This document shows, one piece after another, positions 6,741 through 64,000 of a stretch of DNA of 64,000 nt (position 1 is its first letter; each line of letters opens with the position of its first letter). The stretch is from contig DATKGN010000006.1 of assembly GCA_035510735.1 (NCBI GenBank), positions 1,429-65,428 of the forward strand, in the 5' to 3' direction. The notes beneath the pieces are model-generated. The model saw only the letters and a program-made list of their open reading frames with translations, had not been told where the DNA came from and searched no databases. The position numbers and the translations under genes are program-made. The stretch is from Patescibacteria group bacterium. Lineage in GTDB: Bacteria; Patescibacteriota; Microgenomatia; UBA10105; UBA927.

Positions 6741-8637
6741 CTTCAATCTACAAGATACCCTAGTCAGCAACTCAATATTTGTTATTGGGAGTGTCTTCAG
6801 TGTTAAGGGAAAAGATATTGTAATCAAGGTTAACAAAGATAAAAACCTTCCTCACCTGTTTTTTAAGGGTAAAACAATTAAGAATGTGTCTGTTGGGCTA
6901 TCTAATTATGTAAAAATAACCAAGGGCTTTACTGAGATTATATGCAAGGTTGAAGGTGAATTTTTAGAGGAAGATAAATTTCAAGCAAGTAAAAAATACA
7001 TAAACGAAAAACAAAAAATAGAACGATTCCTCAATGTATCGGTTTTTGGTTTTTATGATAGTGATAATCGATTCCAACATGGCATTAAGGAAATGCCATT
7101 AATCGGTAGTGAGTGTAAATTGCTCACAAGAGATGAATTTGAAATTTTACATCAATTATCTAATGGAACTGAGTTATCAATAAATCTAGGATCACTAATC
7201 GATGAGGAAACCCAAAGCATTAACCTCTCTATAAAGAAATTATTTGCTGGACATATTGGCATATTTGGTAATACCGGATCTGGAAAATCGAATACCTTAG
7301 CAAGGATGTATACAGAGTTATTTAAGTTGCCAAATTTAAATGATAACTTTAATAAAAAATCTAAGTTTATTTTTATAGATTTTAATGGAGAATATTCTAA
7401 AGATAGTGATGATCAAATTTTAACAGCAAATAAAGTTGTCTATAAATTACGAACAAAGGATAATAATGGCTCCAAATACCCAATTTCCAAAGCAGAAATT
7501 GAAAAAATGGAACTTTTATCCATATTGCTTAATGCTACTGAAAAAACACAACAACCATTCTTACATAGAGCTATAGACAGAGACTGGTATGACAACGACA
7601 ACGATGACCATCACAAGGAAGTTCAAAGTATAAACCAAAAGTTAAAAGACATCCTTTTGATGAAAAATAAAGAGTTTAATGTTCCTTTTTTGAAGAAATA
7701 CGTAAAAGACTTTGAACAACTAGGTTTTAAAGTCGTTAATGATAACAAAAATATTGACGATTTGAAATATCATGGTAATGATAATTGTACTTTCTATACT
7801 GGTCAAGGAACTACTGCTGTTTACGCAGATACAAACGAAGGTCATTTTATAGGGGTTGATGGATATTTTAACGTATCTATCTCTACAACTGAAGGTTTGA
7901 GTGACTTGCAAAAAATACAATTCAAAATAATAGACCAATATTACTTTGAGATTTTAAATGGATATGCAAATGATGAACACATCAATCCCCTTATGGGTAG
8001 ATTGAAAAAGCGATTTGACATGTTATCTAAGGTAGTTGAAATTAAGGACTCTTCTCAAACCAACGGAGAAAATGTTGATGTAACACCTTGTAATATAGAG
8101 GTAATTGATCTTAAAAATGTCAATTTTGAACTTAAAAAAGTTGTTCCATTACTTATTTGTAAAACAAACTACGATGAACAAAAAAATAGAAGGGATACCG
8201 ATAAAGAGAATTCTCTTCATATCATAATTGATGAGGCACATAGCATTTTGTCGGAAAACTCAAACAGAGAGGCTGAATCCTGGAAGGATTATAGACTCGA
8301 AACATTCGAGGAAATTATAAAAGAAGGTAGAAAGTTTGGAGTTTTCCTTACAATTGCAAGCCAACGACCGTCTGACATATCGCCAACTATTATTTCGCAG
8401 TTACATAATTATTTTATTCACAAATTAATGAATGAAAATGATTTGAAATCGATTAATAGAGCTGTTAGTTATTTAGATAAACTTTCCTTCGATTCAATAT
8501 CAAATCTTTCTACGGGATGCTGTTTCATCGCAGGACAAATGACACAATTTCCATTGTCAGTAAAAGTAAAACTGCTTGATAAAAATATTCGACCACAAAG
8601 TGAAACAATCGACTTAGATAAATTATGGAAACAATAA
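6727..8637 (+). CDS. HerA/FtsK-like ATPase of SIR2-HerA system
   Basis: Walker A GNTGSGKSNT, Walker B IIIDEAHS, C-terminal ASQRPSD region typical of HerA (DUF87). ORF track starts at TTG 6667; ATG at 6727 gives a 14-nt overlap with the SIR2 gene. Confidence 0.75.
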   Translation: MMKNSFNLQDTLVSNSIFVIGSVFSVKGKDIVIKVNKDKNLPHLFFKGKTIKNVSVGLSNYVKITKGFTEIICKVEGEFLEEDKFQASKKYINEKQKIERFLNVSVFGFYDSDNRFQHGIKEMPLIGSECKLLTRDEFEILHQLSNGTELSINLGSLIDEETQSINLSIKKLFAGHIGIFGNTGSGKSNTLARMYTELFKLPNLNDNFNKKSKFIFIDFNGEYSKDSDDQILTANKVVYKLRTKDNNGSKYPISKAEIEKMELLSILLNATEKTQQPFLHRAIDRDWYDNDNDDHHKEVQSINQKLKDILLMKNKEFNVPFLKKYVKDFEQLGFKVVNDNKNIDDLKYHGNDNCTFYTGQGTTAVYADTNEGHFIGVDGYFNVSISTTEGLSDLQKIQFKIIDQYYFEILNGYANDEHINPLMGRLKKRFDMLSKVVEIKDSSQTNGENVDVTPCNIEVIDLKNVNFELKKVVPLLICKTNYDEQKNRRDTDKENSLHIIIDEAHSILSENSNREAESWKDYRLETFEEIIKEGRKFGVFLTIASQRPSDISPTIISQLHNYFIHKLMNENDLKSINRAVSYLDKLSFDSISNLSTGCCFIAGQMTQFPLSVKVKLLDKNIRPQSETIDLDKLWKQ

Positions 8638-9456: not shown

Positions 9457-9816
9457 ATGGACAAAGAACATCATGATAGTTTTGGAGATTTCTTAGGAGC
9501 ACTTTTCCAATTATTTTTACTAGGTGCGATTATATATTTTCTGTTTTTAGTCATTTGGGGAATTTTCAAGTTAGTTTTGTGGTTACTCAAACGTATTTGG
9601 CAATTAATAACGTGGGTATGGTTTCAGATTAGAAAACACGCCGTCTTACAATACAGAATAAATAGGCTAAACTTGGCCACTCATGCTTTTCTTTTGAGAC
9701 ACGGCAAGATTAATCGAATTATGTTATGTATCCGTACCTATTTCTTAATCTTTTGGACAAGTCGACCATCCGAGTTATTTAATAAACTGAGCAAATCAAT
9801 AGATACGAACGTTTAA
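9457..9816 (+). CDS. small Trp-rich membrane protein, hypothetical
   Basis: ATG 3 nt after preceding stop; strongly hydrophobic N-terminal segment (LGALFQLFLLGAIIYFLFLVIWGIFKLVLWLL). Confidence 0.45.
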   Translation: MDKEHHDSFGDFLGALFQLFLLGAIIYFLFLVIWGIFKLVLWLLKRIWQLITWVWFQIRKHAVLQYRINRLNLATHAFLLRHGKINRIMLCIRTYFLIFWTSRPSELFNKLSKSIDTNV

Positions 9817-9844
9817 AAAATATTGACCGTATTAATTAATATTT

Positions 9845-10361: not shown

Positions 10362-11138
10362 ATGAATGACGATCAATTAAGTTTAACAAAGAAGAAATTT
10401 CCGATACTGTTTTCCTTTTCTCAAGATTACACAGGCAGTGATTACAATGACATCAGGCAATTATTTAGAGATAAGCCAGTCTTAATTTTTGGTGAAGACT
10501 ACTGGTCAAAATATGAGCAATCCCTTCAATCTTTAACTGAAAAAGACAAACAATATTTGTTCGGTAAACTTAAAACCTTAACTAAAAGAATTGATGAAAA
10601 GGCGGGTTGGCCTCATTTCGAAGAAAGACTAAATGAAGCATTGGCTTATAGATATCTTCAAAAAAATGGTTACAAAAAAATACGGTTTATTGACGAAAAC
10701 ACTAAGAATGGACGAAAACCAGATTTAGAAATCCTAAATGCGAATGACTCACTTAATGGACTAGTGGAGGTAAAAACCATTAGATTCTCCCTTGACGAAT
10801 ATGCAGCCGTCAAAAAGGAATTAGAAACAGGTAAAGGAAGATTTTTGCCAATGCAAGTGAACAAAAATCTTTATAAAAAAATTACCGATGATCTAGATAA
10901 AGCAGTAAAACAACTGACTTACCAGGGTTCCGCATCAATATCTTTACGGAGAATTTATCTTTTTCTTAATTTAGACGCCGGAGTCTTAATGGATCTCATA
11001 TTTACCCCAGATAGCGATTTACAAAACTTTATTTGTCAAACTAAAAAAACTTTGGATAAGAATAATCATATTGACTTAAAAACGTATTTACTTGGTGGTA
11101 TTCCCGGAGAGCCAAAAGAGCTCAAATGCAAAGGCTAA
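10362..11138 (+). CDS. hypothetical protein with PD-(D/E)xK-like motif
   Basis: GRKPDLEIL...GLVEVKTI resembles a PD..(D/E)xK restriction-endonuclease-fold core; starts 4 nt after the AbiV-like gene. Confidence 0.4.
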   Translation: MNDDQLSLTKKKFPILFSFSQDYTGSDYNDIRQLFRDKPVLIFGEDYWSKYEQSLQSLTEKDKQYLFGKLKTLTKRIDEKAGWPHFEERLNEALAYRYLQKNGYKKIRFIDENTKNGRKPDLEILNANDSLNGLVEVKTIRFSLDEYAAVKKELETGKGRFLPMQVNKNLYKKITDDLDKAVKQLTYQGSASISLRRIYLFLNLDAGVLMDLIFTPDSDLQNFICQTKKTLDKNNHIDLKTYLLGGIPGEPKELKCKG

Positions 11139-11390: not shown

Positions 11391-11608
11391 TTCTTCTTCA
11401 TTTCTATCTCGTGCAGAAGTTCTTTGTATTCCTTTTCAAGTTCTTCCGGTTCAAAATGAGCCATGGTGTGATAATGGGCTTTGAGATGCTCCAGTAAAGC
11501 CATCGCCATTTCCGGTGTAGCATGTTCGGGGTCAGTGGCTTTCAAAAATTTGAGAACACCGTCGATATCTTTTTCGTTTAACTGATACCCACCTGTCTTT
11601 GTCGTCAT
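11387..11608 (-). CDS. small hypothetical protein downstream of serine recombinase
   Basis: 73-aa ORF, helical/acidic composition, co-oriented 8 nt downstream of the recombinase. Confidence 0.35.
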   Translation of the reverse strand: MTTKTGGYQLNEKDIDGVLKFLKATDPEHATPEMAMALLEHLKAHYHTMAHFEPEELEKEYKELLHEIEMKKN

Positions 11609-27315: not shown

Positions 27316-27786
27316 ATGAAAAAACTCCATAAAGCAGTTATCGGCATTGTCGGCAGTCTGACATTTATCTCAGGTGCAGTTCCCGGCGTCCACGCGGCAA
27401 CCACGTCGCAAGGATATAGCACTACAACGGTAACGCGATCAAATACCTATCAGGATTCACTCATAAATGGGAGGCCGACAGCAACCCCGACGCCAACGCC
27501 TGCAGTAGTACCCACGTCAAATGGTATATTACGTTACATTCCATTGCCTTCCGTCAAACCGACCGCAACGCCGACACCAAAACCAACACCGAAGCCCACA
27601 CCCAAACCAACACCGAAACCGACTCCGAAGGGATCTCCGACACCAAAGGTGTCGCCAAAACCCACGCCCAAGCCAACACCGAAGGTTTCGCCGAAAATGG
27701 ATACAATTACTTCATCGGTCGTGAACACAGTAACTTCGACGTTCCAAAATATAGTCGATACCCTGAAGAATCTGTTTAAGTTTTAA
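27316..27786 (+). CDS. secreted protein with (T/S)PKPTPKP repeats
   Basis: Signal peptide [27 protein letters not shown], then [46 protein letters not shown]. Confidence 0.5.
27540..27700. repeat. coding tandem repeat (period ~12 nt, TPKP codons)
   Basis: ccgaagcccacacccaaaccaacaccgaaaccgactccgaag-type units. Confidence 0.6.
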
Positions 27787-41173: not shown

Positions 41174-41259
41174 TGTCATTGCGAGTCGAGTCATCGAGAC
41201 GTGGCAATCTCTTTATATTTTAGAGATTGCTTCGCCGTCTGAACGGACTCCCAATGACA
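41174..41259. repeat. palindromic intergenic element TGTCATTGCGAG...CAATGACA (family copy) between pyrB stop and pyrC start
   Basis: tgtcattgcgagtcgagtcatcgagacgtggcaatctct ttatatttt agagattgcttcgccgtctgaacggactcccaatgaca; nested palindrome gcaatctct/agagattgc. Confidence 0.65.
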
Positions 41260-56899: not shown

Positions 56900-59800
56900 T
56901 TATTCTGTTGAATAGGTTTGAGCTGAGAGTAAATTCGCATCATCAATGAGGATGGTGAGCCGGTCGTCTTTCTCGTCGATTTTACCGCCCACCGTCACGA
57001 TCTGGTCCATCTGCCAATAATCCATCGTCCGCGCATACACCTTAGGGAATACGACTATTTCAATTATTCCGGTCAGATCCTCGAGCTTCACGAAGGCCAT
57101 CTCATGGTTGCCGGCTTTTGTCGTAATCCGCTTCACATTGACGACAATTCCGCCGACTGATACCCGTTCACCGACCCTATTAACGTTGATATCGGCAATT
57201 GAGGTTAAGGAAAGCGTGCTTAGCTGCTTCCGGTACGGTTCCAAAGGATGCATCGTGAGGTAAAATCCCAATAATTCCTTTTCGTACGCCAGAAGCTCAG
57301 ACTGGGCGATCTCCGGCACTTGAGGGAGAATGTCAGAGAGAATCTGTTTTGCATCATCTTCGGCAAACAACCCGACCTGACCTGATGCGACCTGTTTTTT
57401 TTGCTTATGAACCTGGTCAAGAACCGCCGGAAGGAACGCAAGGAGTGCCGCGCGTTTCCCGAATGCATCCATGGCGCCGGCTTTGATGAGACTCTCAAGC
57501 ACTTTCTTATTGACCTTGCCGGTTTCCACACGGCCCAAGAAATCCCCGATTCCCACGAATTTACCGGCAGCGCGGGCGGCAAGGATGACTTCGATTGCCG
57601 CTTCACCCACATTCTTGACCGCAGACAGTCCGAAACGGATCTTTTCATTCTCTATCGTAAACTCCACGTCCGATGAATTCACGTCTGGAGGGAGGAGCGC
57701 GATTCCGGTCCTCCGGCACTCGGCAACGATACTTGAGATCTTATCGTCGCGTGCCGGCCCCGTATTTGCCCGGGACTCAGCAGCCAATACCGCAGTCATG
57801 TATTCAACTGGATAATTGGCTTTGAGGTACGCTGTCTGATAGGCAATCATGGCGTAACATGCCGCATGCGCTTTGTTAAATCCGTAGCCGGCGAAGGGCT
57901 CAATGAGATTGAAAATCTCCTCAGCGCCCTGCCTGGCCATCCCGTTTTTGATACATCCTTCGACAAATTTCTCCTTCTGTTTCTTCATTTCCGAAGGAAT
58001 CTTTTTGCCTACTGCCTTCCGAAGCTTATCGGCGTCCCCCCACGAGTAACCGGCCAGGGTGATGGCGGTCAAAAGCACGTCGTCCTGGTAGGCGATAATC
58101 CCGTAGGATTGTTTCAAAACATCCTTAAGCCGGGGGTCCGGGTACATAATCTGTGTGGGATCGTGTTTCCGCCGTATAAATTCGGGGATGACCTGCATGG
58201 GTCCGGGCCGGAAAAGGGCGACCATCGCCATGACATCGAAGATGTTGGTGGGCCGTAATTCCTTGATGTAGCGCCGCATGCCCGCCGACTCAAGCTGGAA
58301 TACGCCTGTTGTCTCGCCGCTTGAAAGCATTTTGTAGGTCTTCGCGTCGTTAAGCGGGATTGAGGATAAGTTAATCGTCTCCCCGCGCACTTGTTTAATA
58401 AATTTGAGGGCCTGTGTCATGATCGTCAGGTTCCGTAAGCCCAAAAAGTCCATCTTGAGAAGCCCCACGCCGTCTTCGCCTACGGTATACATATCGTATT
58501 GGGTCACAATCCGCTCGCCCTTACTCTCACGCTGGAGCGGTGTATACTCGACGATCGCCTTGTCGGCGATGACAACGCCTGCTGCATGAACCGACGCATG
58601 GCGTGCAACGCCTTCGAGCTTCCGCGCGACATCAAGAAGCCGCTTGGTCTCCGGTTCACTTTGGTACGCCAGAGCGAGCTCTGGCGCCTGCTGGATAGCT
58701 TTATCGATTGTCATCGCACTTCCCTGAAATCCCATGGGAATCATCTTTGAAATCCTATCCGGCTGTGCATAGGGCATCCCGAGCGCCCGGCCGGCATCAC
58801 GGACGGCACCGCGCGCCTCCATCGTGCCGAAGGTGATAATCTGGGCGACCTTGTCCGAACCATACCGCTGTGTGACGTATTTGATGACTTCATCACGCCT
58901 ATCATCAGCAAAATCAAGGTCGATATCGGGGGGGCTAGGGCGGAATGGATTTAAAAACCGCTCAAACGGGAGGTTAAAGAATAAGGGATCAATGCCGGTG
59001 ATGTTGAGGATAAACGAAATAACTGACCCCGCAGCCGATCCGCGTCCGGGTCCGACCCCGATCCCGTTATTCTTAGCCCAGTTGACGAAATCCTGGACGA
59101 TAAGGAAATACGTCGAATAGCCCTTGGTATTGATAATGTCGAGCTCGTAATTGATCCGTTCCCGTACCGCTTCCGTCATCTTTGGATATTTCGTAGGCGC
59201 CCGGTCCCAAACCATTTTACGTAGGTACGAAGCCGGCGTCTCTCCCGCTTCAAGCGGATACTGCGGCAAAATCCATTTTCCGACAGATAAGGTGATGTCG
59301 CACATGGATGCGATCTTGACGGTATTTTCAATCGCCTCAGGATATTGGATGAAAAGTCCGCGCATCTCTTCGGGCGAACGCATATAAAAATCAGGCGACT
59401 CAAGCATCGAGAGCGGCCGGTCCTTCTCTATCATCGTGTGCTGGGTCTGGACGCAAAGGAGAATTTCCTGCGCCTCCGCATCTTCGGGGTCTACATAATG
59501 AATGTCGTTGGTCGCGACCAAGGGAAGGCCAAGCTTGCGCGACAGCGCAACGAGCTTCTCATTGATTTCGTCCTGGAGGGGAATATGGGGGTGTTTCTGA
59601 AGCTCTATATAATAATGATCGCTGCCGAAAAGCTCGCTATACTTCCTCGCCGTATCCTCTGCCTCTTTGTCTTTCCCCTCACGCAGGAGTACGGATATCT
59701 GCCCCTGAAGACACGCGCTGGTGCAGATGATCCCTTCGTGATATTTGGTCAGAAGTTCGAAGTCGATGCGCGGTTTGTAGTAGTAGCCTTCAAGGTGCGC

Positions 59801-60124
59801 GATCGTGACGAGCTTCATGAGGTTCTTGTATCCTTCCTCGTTTTTGGCAAGGAGAATGAGATGGTATGGGTCGGTATCAATCTTTCCCTCTTTATCGAGG
59901 TGGCTCCGGCGGGCAATATACGTCTCCACTCCTAAAATCGGTTTAATGCCCGCGGCTTTGGCTTTAAGGTAAAACTTGAAGGAGCCGTACATGGCGCCGT
60001 GATCGGTGAGGGCCAAGGCATCCATCCCGAACGATTTGGCGCGCTCAATAAGGTGGTCCAATTTCCCCAGTCCATCAAGGAGTGAAAATTCGCTGTGCGT
60101 GTGCAAGTGTACAAAATCTCCCAT
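56900..60124 (-). CDS. dnaE: DNA polymerase III alpha subunit
   Basis: PHP N-terminus FVHLHTHSEFSLLDG, polymerase core, OB-fold tail. Start placed at MGDFVHLH (60124); alternative upstream ATG at 60142 (MTTALIMGDF) lies inside the hairpin repeat. Confidence 0.85.
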   Translation of the reverse strand: MGDFVHLHTHSEFSLLDGLGKLDHLIERAKSFGMDALALTDHGAMYGSFKFYLKAKAAGIKPILGVETYIARRSHLDKEGKIDTDPYHLILLAKNEEGYKNLMKLVTIAHLEGYYYKPRIDFELLTKYHEGIICTSACLQGQISVLLREGKDKEAEDTARKYSELFGSDHYYIELQKHPHIPLQDEINEKLVALSRKLGLPLVATNDIHYVDPEDAEAQEILLCVQTQHTMIEKDRPLSMLESPDFYMRSPEEMRGLFIQYPEAIENTVKIASMCDITLSVGKWILPQYPLEAGETPASYLRKMVWDRAPTKYPKMTEAVRERINYELDIINTKGYSTYFLIVQDFVNWAKNNGIGVGPGRGSAAGSVISFILNITGIDPLFFNLPFERFLNPFRPSPPDIDLDFADDRRDEVIKYVTQRYGSDKVAQIITFGTMEARGAVRDAGRALGMPYAQPDRISKMIPMGFQGSAMTIDKAIQQAPELALAYQSEPETKRLLDVARKLEGVARHASVHAAGVVIADKAIVEYTPLQRESKGERIVTQYDMYTVGEDGVGLLKMDFLGLRNLTIMTQALKFIKQVRGETINLSSIPLNDAKTYKMLSSGETTGVFQLESAGMRRYIKELRPTNIFDVMAMVALFRPGPMQVIPEFIRRKHDPTQIMYPDPRLKDVLKQSYGIIAYQDDVLLTAITLAGYSWGDADKLRKAVGKKIPSEMKKQKEKFVEGCIKNGMARQGAEEIFNLIEPFAGYGFNKAHAACYAMIAYQTAYLKANYPVEYMTAVLAAESRANTGPARDDKISSIVAECRRTGIALLPPDVNSSDVEFTIENEKIRFGLSAVKNVGEAAIEVILAARAAGKFVGIGDFLGRVETGKVNKKVLESLIKAGAMDAFGKRAALLAFLPAVLDQVHKQKKQVASGQVGLFAEDDAKQILSDILPQVPEIAQSELLAYEKELLGFYLTMHPLEPYRKQLSTLSLTSIADINVNRVGERVSVGGIVVNVKRITTKAGNHEMAFVKLEDLTGIIEIVVFPKVYARTMDYWQMDQIVTVGGKIDEKDDRLTILIDDANLLSAQTYSTE

Positions 60125-60136
60125 AATTAGTGCGGT

Positions 60137-60219
60137 TGTCATTGCGAGCCCGTTCTTACGGCGAAGCAATCCCTCCCTGCGCAGGCAGGTCAAATACAAA
60201 AATCTTCGCTCGCAACGAC
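60137..60219. repeat. palindromic element TGTCATTGCGAGC...GCTCGCAACGAC (family copy) covering the dnaE 5' end
   Basis: gtcattgcgagcccgttcttacggcgaagcaatccctcc...cttcgctcgcaacgac; left arm nearly identical to the right arm of the 41174..41259 copy. Confidence 0.6.
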
Positions 60220-60240
60220 CGATCGAACGCTGTTCGTACA

Positions 60241-60271
60241 ATAGCTAAAACCTATGGGAGATGCAAGAGGA
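60241..60271. repeat. 31-bp perfect direct repeat, left copy (ATAGCTAAAACCTATGGGAGATGCAAGAGGA)
   Basis: Identical 31-mer recurs at 62156..62186. Confidence 0.9.
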
Positions 60272-60309
60272 AATCACATCTACATCGTTAACGATTTTGT
60301 TGAATACTT

Positions 60310-62106
60310 CTACGTTTTTCCACCCGTATATATAGCGTTAATATCCATTTTTCGTAAGAGCAGCTCTAATCCTTCTCTCGATAATCCGTTTGTTTTTGCT
60401 AGTGGCCGCATTTGTTTTCTCACAGATAAACCTTGATCTATACGACTAATAAGATTATTGCAGAACAACAATTCACGCGCGGACAATGAGCTACGTTTTT
60501 CTAATAACTTTTTGGCTCCCTCATATACCGATACTACGAAATCCGGTTTCTGTTCCAAATAGTGTCTGAGATTATCGATATTTGATCTATGATTAGAACG
60601 TAATAAACCCTGACTTTGAAGAGTATCAAGGTTTGCATATCGCCCAGTTGAATCAGCTGTGGTAAGCAATTGAAAAAGCTTCCATGAATCCTGCGTTAAA
60701 TTGGCGAGATCAAATTTTGTGACAGTAGATTTACGATGCAACAAATAATGGTGAGCTGAATTATTCCTTATCCTGTTTCCGTTTGTGTCACAAAATATTT
60801 GTATTCTGTTGGATAGTAACCCGCGAATTTTCCTTAGGATATATGTTGTTTGCGTGCTATCAGGGAGCTGTTTTTTAATCTGAGAAATATATTCATATGC
60901 ATATCTATTATGTTCATCTTTTTCAAACATCATTCTTACGAAGGATCTTTCAAGATCCGTTAAGCTCCCAAATAGTTTTTTTGTTTCTTCGGGTGTCAAT
61001 TGTTCTAATTCCAAACGCAAAGGTTGATGCCTTGCGTAATAATTAAATCTACTGATTTCAAAATCCGCTTCAATTGCCGAAACATACCCTTTTATATTCA
61101 CCGGGTCATCTGGAATAACCTTAGTGCTCCCTAGTCTCTCTGCATATGCTTGTACACCCTTATTAAAGTCTCCATGCAGTTGCCAACGATTTAAATGTAA
61201 GCGTGCAAAAAACTCTGGTTTTTTTGTTTCCGAATACACATAACCCATACAATATAATATTGCAAACGACTGATGAGGCTGTAATTCTGATAACAAGTTA
61301 AAAATCTGCCGTATAGTTAACTGCTTGGACACCTCAGCAAACCGCTGTCGAAGAGAATTAGCAGAGGGTATACCTACCGAACCTGAGTCTTCAGACGTTG
61401 GCAGTGACTGAAAATCATTTTGCCCTTTTTGTACCAGCGCTTTAATTTCTGGGCCTATGACGTCATCATCCGGAGGCGCGCCATCTTCAATCCAAGCAAC
61501 AAGTGCTTTTTTTTGTGAAGCTGATAATGAGTCAACAACCTGTGATATTTCATTCAGAGATTCCCGTTGTTCCACGATCTGTTCCGGTGTCATTGATTCA
61601 TCAGGAAATATAAAGTCGTCATCTCCACCGTCATCAAAATCATCGTGGTGGACCATTCTGATCCTGTCGGTTGCCTGAATCTCTCTAAAATTATTTACTC
61701 TACTCATGATAGGCATTATGCGGAATATATACCTATCCATTTGGTGAATAAAATCTTCTTCGTCTCGAACAGTATCAACCTTCTTATACTTTCTTAACCA
61801 ATCCTCAACCCGCGGTTGATACTGCTCCGTAATCTCATCATCGAGAATGTGGTGTTTTTTAAACTTACTGAAACTGTTATAAATATATTGTTCAAATCGG
61901 AACAGACCCTCCCGCACATCCGTTTCAGTGTACACATGGTCCGCGTATGATTGCAGATCATAGAGTATATCGCCCATTCTCACATTATGAACATCGACGA
62001 AGGGAACAGAGTAGAGATGAGACACTCTTCTCGCGGAACCTACTATAGACTGCATGTCGGCAAATTGAAGCTCTTTAACGGATTCTTTTTTAATTACTTC
62101 GTTCAT
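60310..62106 (-). CDS. hypothetical 598-aa protein (orphan, no recognised domain) carried on the segment bounded by the 31-bp direct repeats
   Basis: Long uninterrupted ORF, acidic DDFDDGGDDD tract, no motif I can assign. Confidence 0.5.
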   Translation of the reverse strand: MNEVIKKESVKELQFADMQSIVGSARRVSHLYSVPFVDVHNVRMGDILYDLQSYADHVYTETDVREGLFRFEQYIYNSFSKFKKHHILDDEITEQYQPRVEDWLRKYKKVDTVRDEEDFIHQMDRYIFRIMPIMSRVNNFREIQATDRIRMVHHDDFDDGGDDDFIFPDESMTPEQIVEQRESLNEISQVVDSLSASQKKALVAWIEDGAPPDDDVIGPEIKALVQKGQNDFQSLPTSEDSGSVGIPSANSLRQRFAEVSKQLTIRQIFNLLSELQPHQSFAILYCMGYVYSETKKPEFFARLHLNRWQLHGDFNKGVQAYAERLGSTKVIPDDPVNIKGYVSAIEADFEISRFNYYARHQPLRLELEQLTPEETKKLFGSLTDLERSFVRMMFEKDEHNRYAYEYISQIKKQLPDSTQTTYILRKIRGLLSNRIQIFCDTNGNRIRNNSAHHYLLHRKSTVTKFDLANLTQDSWKLFQLLTTADSTGRYANLDTLQSQGLLRSNHRSNIDNLRHYLEQKPDFVVSVYEGAKKLLEKRSSLSARELLFCNNLISRIDQGLSVRKQMRPLAKTNGLSREGLELLLRKMDINAIYTGGKT

Positions 62107-62155
62107 GATGTATGAGGCAGATTTTGGCGGTTAAAATCATCGTAATAGTTTCACG

Positions 62156-62186
62156 ATAGCTAAAACCTATGGGAGATGCAAGAGGA
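62156..62186. repeat. 31-bp perfect direct repeat, right copy
   Basis: Identical to 60241..60271. Confidence 0.9.
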
Positions 62187-62203
62187 TGTTAAGGAGATTG
62201 GCT

Positions 62204-63067
62204 ATGCTATACTGCGTTGTAAATAGTATGAATGCATACTTTGAACTAATTCTTGCATCGATCATATTTGCTTCCGGGGGCGTGTTCGTAAAAATCCTGC
62301 ACCTCCCGTCAACGACGCTGACCTTTTTCCGTGTCGGTGTCCCGACAATCGTACTTTTTATCTACCTGACAGCAAAGAAGATTCCGCTTTTTCGGGGAAA
62401 TAATAAACTTGTTCTCATCGCTTCCGCTCTTAACGCCGTCCGACTTCTCATGTACTTCATCGCATATACGATGGCGACGATTGGAAACGCGTCACTGATG
62501 ACCGCGACAACACCGATCTTCATATTTATCTACAGCTATTTCTTCCTGAAAGAAAAAATCAGCAGGAAACGCTTTTTCCTCCTTGCGCTCGCGATATCAG
62601 GCGCTGTCGTCCTCTACAGCAACCAACCGATCTCATTCGGGAACAAAGATTTTATCGGCATGACGTTTGCACTCCTCTCAACGGCTCTCTATGCATTTAC
62701 AGTAATTATCTTTAAAAAGGAACTCTCACGATATACAAAAGCAGAAACCATTTTTTACCAGAACGTCGTCGGAGCGTTTGTGTTTTTACCATTCCTTTTC
62801 ATCAACCATCCGGCTCCGGTGCTTTGGCAAATATCTTTGGCTTCAGTATCCGGATTACTCATAGGCATCGTGGGTTTTATCTTCTACTTCGCGGCCCTCA
62901 AGAAAGTTGCGGCATCCGCCGTATCGCTGGCATCAATCGATAGTGTCATCGCCGTCCTCTTCGGTATTCTCTTCTTCAAAGAGCATCTGACGCCCAACAT
63001 GGTCATCGGCGGCGCCTGCATCCTCACGGCGTCGCTCTTTATCCAAAAAGAAATGAGAAAAACTTGA
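62204..63067 (+). CDS. EamA/DMT-family transporter
   Basis: 10 TM, duplicated EamA halves; start at ATG 62204 with AAGGAG 7 nt upstream (track start 62186 lies in the repeat). Confidence 0.6.
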   Translation: MLYCVVNSMNAYFELILASIIFASGGVFVKILHLPSTTLTFFRVGVPTIVLFIYLTAKKIPLFRGNNKLVLIASALNAVRLLMYFIAYTMATIGNASLMTATTPIFIFIYSYFFLKEKISRKRFFLLALAISGAVVLYSNQPISFGNKDFIGMTFALLSTALYAFTVIIFKKELSRYTKAETIFYQNVVGAFVFLPFLFINHPAPVLWQISLASVSGLLIGIVGFIFYFAALKKVAASAVSLASIDSVIAVLFGILFFKEHLTPNMVIGGACILTASLFIQKEMRKT

Positions 63068-63124
63068 TCCGACAAGATTGAAAGAAAGAACGTTCAATAT
63101 ACTTTTGATATACTGTACGCATAC

Positions 63125-63499
63125 ATGGACACAGAATTAAAACAATTACTCGCGACCGACAAATCATTTTCCGACCTGTCAAAAGAAAAAGGCGCGGCTG
63201 AAGCATTCTCTCGGTATCTTGTGAAGGACGCCACCATGCTCCCGAATAATGGAACCCCAATTGTAGGAATCGCCGCGATATATAAATCCATGAGCCTGGG
63301 AAAGAATGAAGTATTAACCTGGGAACCAAAGGGTGGGGATGTTTCAAAAATAGCGGACATGGGCTACACCTGGGGTATATTTAATCTTTCATTAGCTAAT
63401 GGGAAAATAGAAACAGGTAAATACTTAAATGTTTGGCGAAAACAAGATGATGGATCTTGGAAGGTAGAGGTAGATATGGGGAATAATAATCCCGCTTAA
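63125..63499 (+). CDS. NTF2-like/SnoaL-like (DUF4440-type) small protein
   Basis: C-terminal VWRKQDDGSWKV pattern typical of NTF2-like fold proteins. Confidence 0.4.
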   Translation: MDTELKQLLATDKSFSDLSKEKGAAEAFSRYLVKDATMLPNNGTPIVGIAAIYKSMSLGKNEVLTWEPKGGDVSKIADMGYTWGIFNLSLANGKIETGKYLNVWRKQDDGSWKVEVDMGNNNPA

Positions 63500-63678
63500 G
63501 AATCAGTCAATAAGTTGCTTCGTTAAGTAATCCATCACTTTCTTCTTATCCCCTTTTCCTTTAAGAGTCTTTAGCACGTTGCCGAAGAGGAACATTTCAT
63601 CTGCTCTTAGCCCGTTTTGAATCGACACTTCTGCTTCCACTCCTATAATTACCCTATGAAAGGAATGAGAGAAGGAAA

Positions 63679-63987
63679 TTAATTCAGTAACCCCGCAATC
63701 TCAAATTCATTAGATCCTAATGTTTTTTTCATGAGTTTATCCCTGGCAATAGGTGATAAAGTAATTATTTGACTATAGCTCGTAGCGCTTGATCTTTCTC
63801 TATCACCTATTACCGTTTGCGTACCTTTTGTAGTTACGTATTTTTCTGGGACGTTCATTCCTCCGTGACAAATTATTAAATTTCCAGAATCAGAGTCTAT
63901 ATGTAAATTTAAAACTCCACCACCTTTTTTTGGACAACCAGGCACCTCAATGTTTCCTATTAAGCCTTTTTCATTAATTATTTGCAC
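63679..63987 (-). CDS. hypothetical protein (N-terminus may extend past window end)
   Basis: 102-aa ORF close to window edge. Confidence 0.25.
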   Translation of the reverse strand: MQIINEKGLIGNIEVPGCPKKGGGVLNLHIDSDSGNLIICHGGMNVPEKYVTTKGTQTVIGDRERSSATSYSQIITLSPIARDKLMKKTLGSNEFEIAGLLN

Positions 63988-64000
63988 GGTATTGTCTACG

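Follow-up and report, generated by a model that had tools for sequence, protein, structure and literature searches.

The locus analyzed here raises the question of how an orphan gene came to lie between two identical copies of a short sequence directly upstream of dnaE. It is part of a 64,000-nucleotide (nt) stretch (the window) of contig DATKGN010000006.1 (positions 1,429 to 65,428 of the forward strand; assembly GCA_035510735.1) from a Patescibacteria group bacterium. An earlier note on this DNA had described a perfect 31-bp direct repeat on either side of an open reading frame (ORF) of 598 amino acids (aa), and proposed either att-like site-specific integration or a duplication-mediated insertion of a cassette carrying an uncharacterized gene. 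Our comparisons with related genomes showed that, as far as sequence can tell, a foreign cassette of 1,884 bp, with one gene and apparently no promoter of its own, entered the DNA between the -10 box and the leader of dnaE, duplicating 31 bp (34 bp with one mismatch) of the putative host promoter. The features that matter for this reading are the following:

60272..62155, minus strand: inserted cassette of 1,884 bp, bounded by the repeats, in which the ORF is preceded by a 5' leader of 49 nt and followed by a 3' tail of 38 nt
60310..62106, minus strand: 598-aa ORF, P0001, NCBI accession HUD19637.1, annotated as "hypothetical protein" of Patescibacteria group bacterium
62153..62186, minus strand: repeat copy 2, duplicated putative dnaE promoter block (31-mer exact, 34 nt with one mismatch), homologous to the single blocks of the related contigs L019/L020 and L014
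60238..60271, minus strand: repeat copy 1, putative dnaE promoter block retained before dnaE
56900..60124, minus strand: dnaE (DNA polymerase III alpha subunit), assigned by its Pfam domains, with the called start at window position 60124

The window scan found the repeat, ATAGCTAAAACCTATGGGAGATGCAAGAGGA, as described in the earlier note: the two copies, 60241-60271 and 62156-62186, are exact and are the only ones in the window, which is part of a 134-kb contig. With one mismatch (33/34 identical) the repeat lengthens to 34 nt, starting at 60238 and 62153, respectively. No third match to the 31-mer with three or fewer mismatches was found in the 64 kb, none of 100 shuffled sequences gave any match, and the next-best degenerate match to the 34-nt repeat elsewhere in the window was 22/34. 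The 31-mer is thus not a common genomic repeat. Moreover, no other direct repeat of similar quality was present in the window, and the 31-mer had no match in the GTDB representative genomes, IMG/VR or the JGI metagenome contigs. The single minus-strand ORF with an acidic tract that had been noted between the copies was also confirmed at 60310-62106, with no above-threshold match in Pfam, PHROG, NCBIfam or PADLOC.

Two further assemblies cover the repeat-bounded segment. An ENA contig built by MEGAHIT at k=141 (L001) is identical to the window over the shared 13.7 kb and spans both junctions; an assembly artefact was ruled out because this k-mer is far longer than the repeat. A Logan contig of SRR8695230 built at k=31 (L002; 1,944 bp, five samples) corresponds exactly to window positions 60242-62185. 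It breaks at both copies, since a repeat of 31 nt forces a break in the de Bruijn graph at this k. The two ends of L002 share the same 30 nt, and integrated and circular forms are not distinguishable from it. Caution is therefore needed with k=31 assemblies, in which the cassette comes out as a contig of its own (1,944 bp, with the same sequence at both ends) that could be mistaken for a circular element.

The repeated block has the layout of a sigma-70 promoter, TTGCA(T/A), 17-18 nt and TA..GT. Read on the minus strand, where both dnaE and the 598-aa ORF are encoded, it is TCCTC, TTGCAT, CTCCCATAGGTTTTAGC and TAT, followed by TGT at copy 1. In copy 2, the -35 hexamer TTGCAT (62181-62176) is separated by a 17-nt spacer from the -10 hexamer TATCGT (62158-62153); in copy 1, the hexamers are TTGCAT (60266-60261) and TATTGT (60243-60238). 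Copy 2 is in sense orientation 46 nt upstream of the ATG of the 598-aa ORF; measured from where the perfect 31-mer ends, the distance is 49 nt. Homologs of DnaE with 83-85% identity were found, and three of their contigs were compared with the window. Contigs L019/L020 and L014 each carry one homologous block directly upstream of dnaE, which reads GATCCTCTTGCATCT, 18 nt and TAAAGT in L019/L020 and CCCCTTGCAA, 17 nt and TATTGTAC (i.e., TTGCAA, a 17-nt spacer and TATTGTAC) in L014. From this conservation, the spacing and the position, we infer that the repeated block is the dnaE promoter.

The same comparison indicates on which side each copy remains host-like. Copy 1 retains the host-like downstream sequence TATTGTAC, matching L014, and copy 2 retains the host-like upstream base. 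The inner ends of the cassette, CGTGAAAC... and ...GATGTGATT, have no counterpart in the dnaE-upstream regions of the relatives. Because copy 1 is host-like downstream, copy 2 is host-like upstream and the inner ends are without counterpart, the arrangement is best described as an insertion with target duplication. The relatives, whose DnaE is 83-84% identical, lack the 598-aa gene at this locus and have a single promoter block; they are different species with different upstream neighbors. The earlier suggestion that a cassette with an uncharacterized gene had been inserted, with the repeat as a duplication made at insertion, is supported by these results. For the empty site that it called for, the evidence comes from other species, in which relatives show a single homologous block and no cassette; no empty site of the same species was found in the collections searched.

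The earlier note had also placed the repeat over the 5' region of the EamA transporter gene. The repeat touches an in-frame ATG at 62186; the EamA gene itself is called from 62228, with an alternative start that has a better ribosome-binding site at 62204, so the contact appears incidental to a repeat that is probably the dnaE promoter block. A role of the repeat as promoter or ribosome-binding site of EamA in antisense was considered and dropped after the alignment with the dnaE-upstream regions of the relatives. A dif/Xer-type site was also considered, and no 11-6-11 dyad was visible in the repeat by eye.

The GC content of the repeat interval is 0.34-0.44, compared with 0.49-0.58 in dnaE and approximately 0.45 in the EamA gene. 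No transfer RNA (tRNA) gene, Rfam family or predicted terminator was found in the repeat-bounded segment, and terminal inverted repeats were not found in the cassette (the alignment of its ends was no better than that of shuffles, p = 0.11). Searches of the ORF with Pfam, NCBIfam, PHROG and PADLOC and inspection of the gene neighbors revealed no integrase, transposase, prophage or other mobility gene in or beside the cassette. The att-like site-specific integration of the earlier note was therefore not borne out: integrase, tRNA and mobility genes are missing in and next to the segment, and the repeat appears to be the host dnaE promoter instead of an element core. Similarly, the cassette does not belong with integron cassettes, as no IntI was found nearby and the repeat is a direct repeat of a putative promoter block without an attC-like imperfect palindrome.

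The encoded protein belongs to an extremely sparse family. Word-indexed searches of 5.8 billion proteins with P0001 returned only P0001 itself, on the 134-kb contig, and a word-indexed search with the family alignment returned the query alone. An exhaustive phmmer search of 1.84 billion cluster representatives returned the query and seven other matches, of which six were real remote homologs with 19-26% identity to P0001, one of them aligned end to end. The remaining match, P0006 (280 aa, with tandem repeats of EFSEYARHHPVRLRLPPLHRRGIA...), covered query residues 331-370 in four stretches, looks like translated repetitive DNA and was excluded. A seventh homolog, P0009 (1,125 aa), came from a cluster look-up. 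The alignment holds the motifs S.RRV..IF, DV..DL.SF, W..W.P.G, L.L.QIF..L..L..R...A.L..FGY, LT..ER, PRF..NG, L..LT....F...TTPD..GRY and I..GIP, and the family is considered real because these motifs are conserved along its whole length. Its members are helical proteins of approximately 560-1,125 aa, and cluster and contig look-ups placed those that were located on metagenomic, Patescibacteria-like chromosomal contigs among housekeeping genes. Both named sources are Patescibacteria, one of them Candidatus Gottesmanbacteria. In the latter (GCA_001779235.1; L008, 3230-8466), P0009 has a Phd/ParE toxin-antitoxin pair on one side and, on the other, a Y1 transposase gene of the IS200/IS605 type. No family member was found in IMG/VR (P0001 and P0007), in the GTDB representatives (P0008) or in phage and plasmid records.

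The remote-homology and structure analyses recommended for the 598-aa protein thus yielded seven remote homologs and an all-helical model, with no significant structural match. The AlphaFold model based on the seven-sequence alignment had a predicted local distance difference test (pLDDT) score of 66 overall and of approximately 80 over much of residues 250-590; the model from the single sequence, with a pLDDT of 36, was useless. The 14 top-ranked PDB neighbors in Foldseek were all sigma-70 chains, at non-significant values (E from 0.3, template modeling score approximately 0.1). At the profile level, sub-threshold matches were found to Sigma70_r4_2 in three of the seven members (best E = 4.7e-5, 23.4 bits versus a cut-off of 25.7), to Sigma70_r4 in three, to GerE in two and to TIGR02937 (sigma70-ECF) in four (best E = 6.4e-6). 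When the family profile was aligned by hhalign with regions 2-4 of Escherichia coli RpoD, only region 4 aligned (E = 0.019, probability 2.4%), and the match fell on the L..LT...TTPD..GRY module. Comparison of the family profile with itself revealed an internal tandem repeat of approximately 120 columns (E = 2e-5), of which P0007 has one additional unit. Similarity to nucleases or to DDE, HUH, recombinase or Cas1 proteins was not detected in the seven members by profile searches or Foldseek.

Similar to proteins with helix-turn-helix (HTH) modules of the sigma-70 region 4 or LuxR (GerE) type, the family contains several modules with the pattern L..LT..E/Q....L...G, and the sub-threshold profile matches and non-significant sigma-70 structural neighbors given above are to proteins of these types. 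Different from sigma-70 proteins, the family has at least three tandem repeats of approximately 120 aa and an N-terminal domain of its own, reaches no curated threshold and lacks a detectable region 2, the region for core binding and -10 recognition: Sigma70_r2 matched no member, and searching the PDB with the N-terminal profile retrieved no sigma factor. Without a detectable region 2, the family does not qualify as a sigma factor family. Likenesses seen by eye between the N-terminal motif (S.RRV..IF ... DV..DL.SF, W..W.P) and sigma regions 2.1-2.3, and between the FGY module and sigma region 4, were unsupported by profile searches of the PDB. A weak DUF87/HerA match of P0001 was below threshold and did not recur in other members. 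We read the protein as a putative DNA-binding array of sigma-4/LuxR-like HTH modules that follows a family-specific N-terminal domain and an acidic linker.

Long flanking repeats were also found at two of the five other family loci that could be tested, L005 and L003; a further locus, L011, was excluded from the test, as its contig ends too near the gene. In L005, from groundwater, the gene for P0007 (817 aa) is bracketed by a perfect 63-bp direct repeat (7810-7872 and 10466-10528). This repeat comprises the -10 box (TATAAT), the ribosome-binding site and the first 15 codons of yebC, in sense to the family gene, and its downstream copy runs on into an intact yebC. The upstream copy makes a 29-aa chimeric ORF (7828-7917; 15 yebC codons plus cassette sequence) ahead of the family gene. 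A search of the JGI contigs with the central 45 nt of the repeat (10474-10518) returned two filled loci only and no empty site. The two interpretable cases, the window and L005, thus have the same geometry: host promoter copy, family gene, host promoter copy and host gene.

In L003, the two copies of a 31-nt repeat on either side of the gene for P0008 differ at three positions (28/31; 7867-7897 and 9805-9835). This repeat is part of a motif of approximately 36 nt, TAAAGGTACGAGTATAAAGTAACAGAAGGTATGAAG, whose four copies (7867-7902, 9805-9840, 10518-10553 and 11535-11570; 69-86% identity to the reference copy) bracket three consecutive genes, i.e., the family gene, a 218-aa ORF without match and a 244-aa P-loop ORF. 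Exactly 10 nt separate the 218-aa ORF from the motif copy at either end. Copies 2-4 share the left extension TTAAGTCT, which copy 1 is without.

The three repeat-bounded units are 1,884, 1,907 and 2,593 bp long, and each consists of the gene and short untranslated ends only. Their end sequences are unrelated to one another, and no core sequence is common to the three repeats. Compared with shuffles, terminal inverted repeats were not found in L003 (p = 0.18) and were marginal in L005 (p = 0.05). The GC content of the family genes was 0.37-0.43 whatever that of the host flanks (0.31-0.50). In approximately 150 kb of Patescibacteria sequence (the window and five other loci), long direct repeats of high identity occurred only around family genes. 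Because such repeats recur at family loci and at no others across this sequence, it is unlikely that their link with the family is a coincidence.

The best overall explanation, which we hold with moderate confidence, is that movement of the family gene leaves a long target duplication. The predicted pre-insertion site, on the minus strand, would be CCTTAACA + TCCTCTTGCATCTCCCATAGGTTTTAGCTAT + TGTACGAAC. A staggered opening of this target, offset by some three or six helical turns (31 or 63 bp), would be followed by joining of the cassette and by repair of the gaps by the host. In the present arrangement, copy 2 faces the inserted gene in sense and copy 1 still faces dnaE. It is also conceivable, with less to support it, that the multi-HTH protein binds promoter-type DNA and helps to choose or open the target. 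Alternatively, selection may retain only those insertions that gain one promoter copy and regenerate another; upstream of dnaE, a promoterless cassette would survive only if the promoter were regenerated. The repeat lengths of 31, 31 and 63 bp are near three and six helical turns, which would suit tandem DNA-binding modules and is suggestive, a remark made on three cases.

Several results weigh against this explanation. No same-species empty site was found by searching the 31-mer in the GTDB representatives, IMG/VR and JGI contigs or by exact-protein look-up of EamA, which returned the same contig only, and a closely related copy inserted at another site was likewise not found; for these two reasons, mobility is inferred and not shown. 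Flanking repeats were not found at L008, L012 and L013. The four-copy motif of L003 could be a shared regulatory motif, of which one copy was hit and duplicated, or the result of successive att-like insertions or a cassette array. The consensus promoter scan did not list the repeated block, in which 7 of 12 consensus positions are matched, and its putative promoter identity takes only conservation and spacing as its ground. Finally, no catalytic domain was recognizable in the protein, all sigma and HTH matches were below curated thresholds and the sub-domain profiles matched no sigma factor in the PDB.

The context of dnaE bears on the first alternative. The order gatCAB, dnaE and atp operon is conserved in all compared genomes, and the content between gatB and dnaE is unlike in each of the four, which makes this interval a hypervariable hotspot:

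L014, 6918-7000: 83 nt, no gene
P0014 contig: PALP, RidA and a 386-aa ORF
L019/L020 (L019, 2774-4156): 321-aa ORF and DUF4325
window, 60125-64000 and beyond (L001, 4063-8857): 369-aa ORF, DUF4440, EamA and the 598-aa ORF

It is possible that an accessory gene was taken up by a competent cell and joined or copied into a staggered break at this hotspot, with the duplication made by repair. The hotspot itself speaks for such passive capture, as does the fact that half of the testable family loci are without a repeat. Long target duplications without mobility genes, such as those of restriction-modification units, have moreover been found mostly in naturally competent bacteria (PMC2853133). The other genes of the hotspot (EamA, DUF4440 and the 369-aa ORF), however, are not flanked by repeats, and three independent, highly diverged family members have long ones, with the same promoter orientation in both interpretable cases. 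We consider passive capture, in which the association of family and repeat would reflect only recent acquisition, unlikely, if worth keeping in mind.

Integration of att type would involve a circular form with one repeat as attP and a recombinase that is either an unrecognized multi-HTH type or a host or trans-acting enzyme. The perfect 31-bp and 63-bp blocks, placed at gene 5' ends, recall the manner in which integrative elements restore the genes they target, and the identical 30 nt at the ends of the k=31 Logan contig are compatible with a circular form. In L003, four motif copies around three genes, three of them with the shared extension, are what tandem integrations at one att site would be expected to leave. 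Diverged homology beyond the repeats, as expected of an element-borne att site, was sought and rejected as a general feature: it was marginal just outside the 63-bp block of L005 (p ~0.02-0.04) and was found neither in L003 nor in the window, where similarity stops at the repeat on either side. Against att-type integration are also the lack of a tyrosine or serine recombinase domain in the seven members, of a recombinase among the top 50 Foldseek PDB matches and of an integrase gene in the neighborhood. In addition, the repeat appears to be lineage-specific host promoter DNA, and the three repeats are without a common core sequence. On balance, att-type integration is also improbable.

More doubtful still is that a new class of single-gene mobile elements exists in which the tandem sigma-region-4-like HTH protein itself carries out both targeting and integration. 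Equally doubtful is the mechanism that such a class would imply, in which promoter DNA is recognized and inserted into, with duplications of approximately 31 or 63 bp, by a protein without DDE, HUH, tyrosine or serine recombinase or Cas1 similarity, so that one promoter copy would serve the element and another would be restored to the host gene.

An insertion sequence (IS) of the IS1634/IS1549 type, in which a DDE transposase makes long direct repeats of variable length, would fit the size of 1.9 kb, the single long ORF and the repeats of 31, 31 and 63 bp. It is nevertheless very improbable, as the seven members, even at E up to 1, matched neither DDE_Tnp_1 nor another transposase, the predicted fold is all-helical without an RNase-H-like sheet, terminal inverted repeats are missing and the unit is single-copy in the window and at all examined loci. 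That the arrangement is an artefact of assembly, a chimera or a dispersed repeat with no connection to the gene is hardly credible: the source is metagenome-assembled and the k=31 assembly breaks at the repeat, but the k=141 contig is identical through both junctions, the 31-mer occurs twice in 64 kb and was absent from all three collections in which it was sought, and the same architecture occurs around homologs from unrelated samples.

The remaining neighbors of the cassette are dnaE, EamA, DUF4440 and the 369-aa ORF, which has no informative match, and the gatB-dnaE interval of the window has a GC content below that of dnaE throughout. The EamA gene was the upstream border of the insertion site before arrival of the cassette. 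Two features flank the repeat-bounded segment:

60125..60237, minus strand: dnaE leader, holding a palindromic element that resembles a repetitive extragenic palindrome (REP) or miniature inverted-repeat transposable element (MITE), outside the cassette
62228..63067, plus strand: EamA-family transporter gene (Pfam EamA, E = 5e-31), divergent from the cassette

The palindrome in the dnaE leader (60127-60237) has the arms GTCGTTGCGAGC and GCTCGCAATGAC, and a second copy with both arms is at 41175-41258. It folds at -40.5 kcal/mol (z = -1.6) and spuriously translates to a peptide of the type "SLRA...FARNDR". The dnaE leader of the window is approximately 60 nt longer than those of L014 and L019. 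Elsewhere in the window, a cluster of imperfect 24-nt repeats similar to AAACCGACCGCAACGCCGACACCA (71-79% identity) at 27472-27681 is probably a low-complexity repetitive coding segment.

The significance of the locus exceeds that of a single odd repeat: the similar long repeats around two distant relatives of the gene suggest a mobile element with no recognizable transposase, although the findings fall short of demonstrating a new one. The footprint known from restriction-modification insertions recurs around a compact gene family that is unrelated to those genes and occurs in Patescibacteria, a group in which little is known of mobile elements. If the association between family and repeat holds in a census, the 1.9-kb one-gene unit would be a tractable model for insertions with long target duplication. 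If true, it would also illustrate by what route a foreign gene that arrives without a promoter can come to be expressed while essential neighbors such as dnaE are not silenced.

Among known systems, the cassette comes nearest to the insertions with long target duplication that Nobusato and colleagues reportedly described in 2000 for restriction-modification gene complexes. Restriction-modification units with no other mobility genes were found between unique target duplications that exceed 30 bp (46, 47 and approximately 400 bp); the mechanism is unknown and may be connected with DNA breaks made by the gene products (Furuta, Abe and Kobayashi, 2010; PMC2853133). Similar to these units, the cassette is small, is flanked by a directly duplicated host sequence that is unique and longer than 30 bp (here 31/31 or 33/34), lacks transposase, integrase and inverted repeats, and has a GC content unlike that of its host. 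Different from them, its cargo is a multi-HTH protein, its hosts are Patescibacteria and the duplicated DNA is a putative housekeeping promoter or gene 5' end in sense to the inserted gene in the two interpretable cases. Moreover, the published cases were defined by a same-species empty site, whereas here the single block is known from other species.

IS1634 and IS1549 create direct repeats of 8-514 bp, for which there is no mechanistic model (PMC2266710). With these IS4-related elements the cassette shares a length of 1.5-2 kb, a single ORF and direct repeats of tens to hundreds of bp that vary between copies. A DDE transposase, terminal inverted repeats and multiple copies, which characterize IS1634 and IS1549, were all three not found for the cassette. 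Similar to integrative elements that rebuild their target gene, the cassette is flanked by repeats of host gene sequence and leaves the target intact; different from them, it has one gene and no integrase, and the site it targets is a promoter or gene 5' end, not a 3' end. Neither this protein family nor the pattern of promoter capture and regeneration was found described in literature searches. Thus, compared with the known systems, the cassette differs in its cargo family, its host phylum and the recurrent capture and regeneration of what appears to be a housekeeping promoter.

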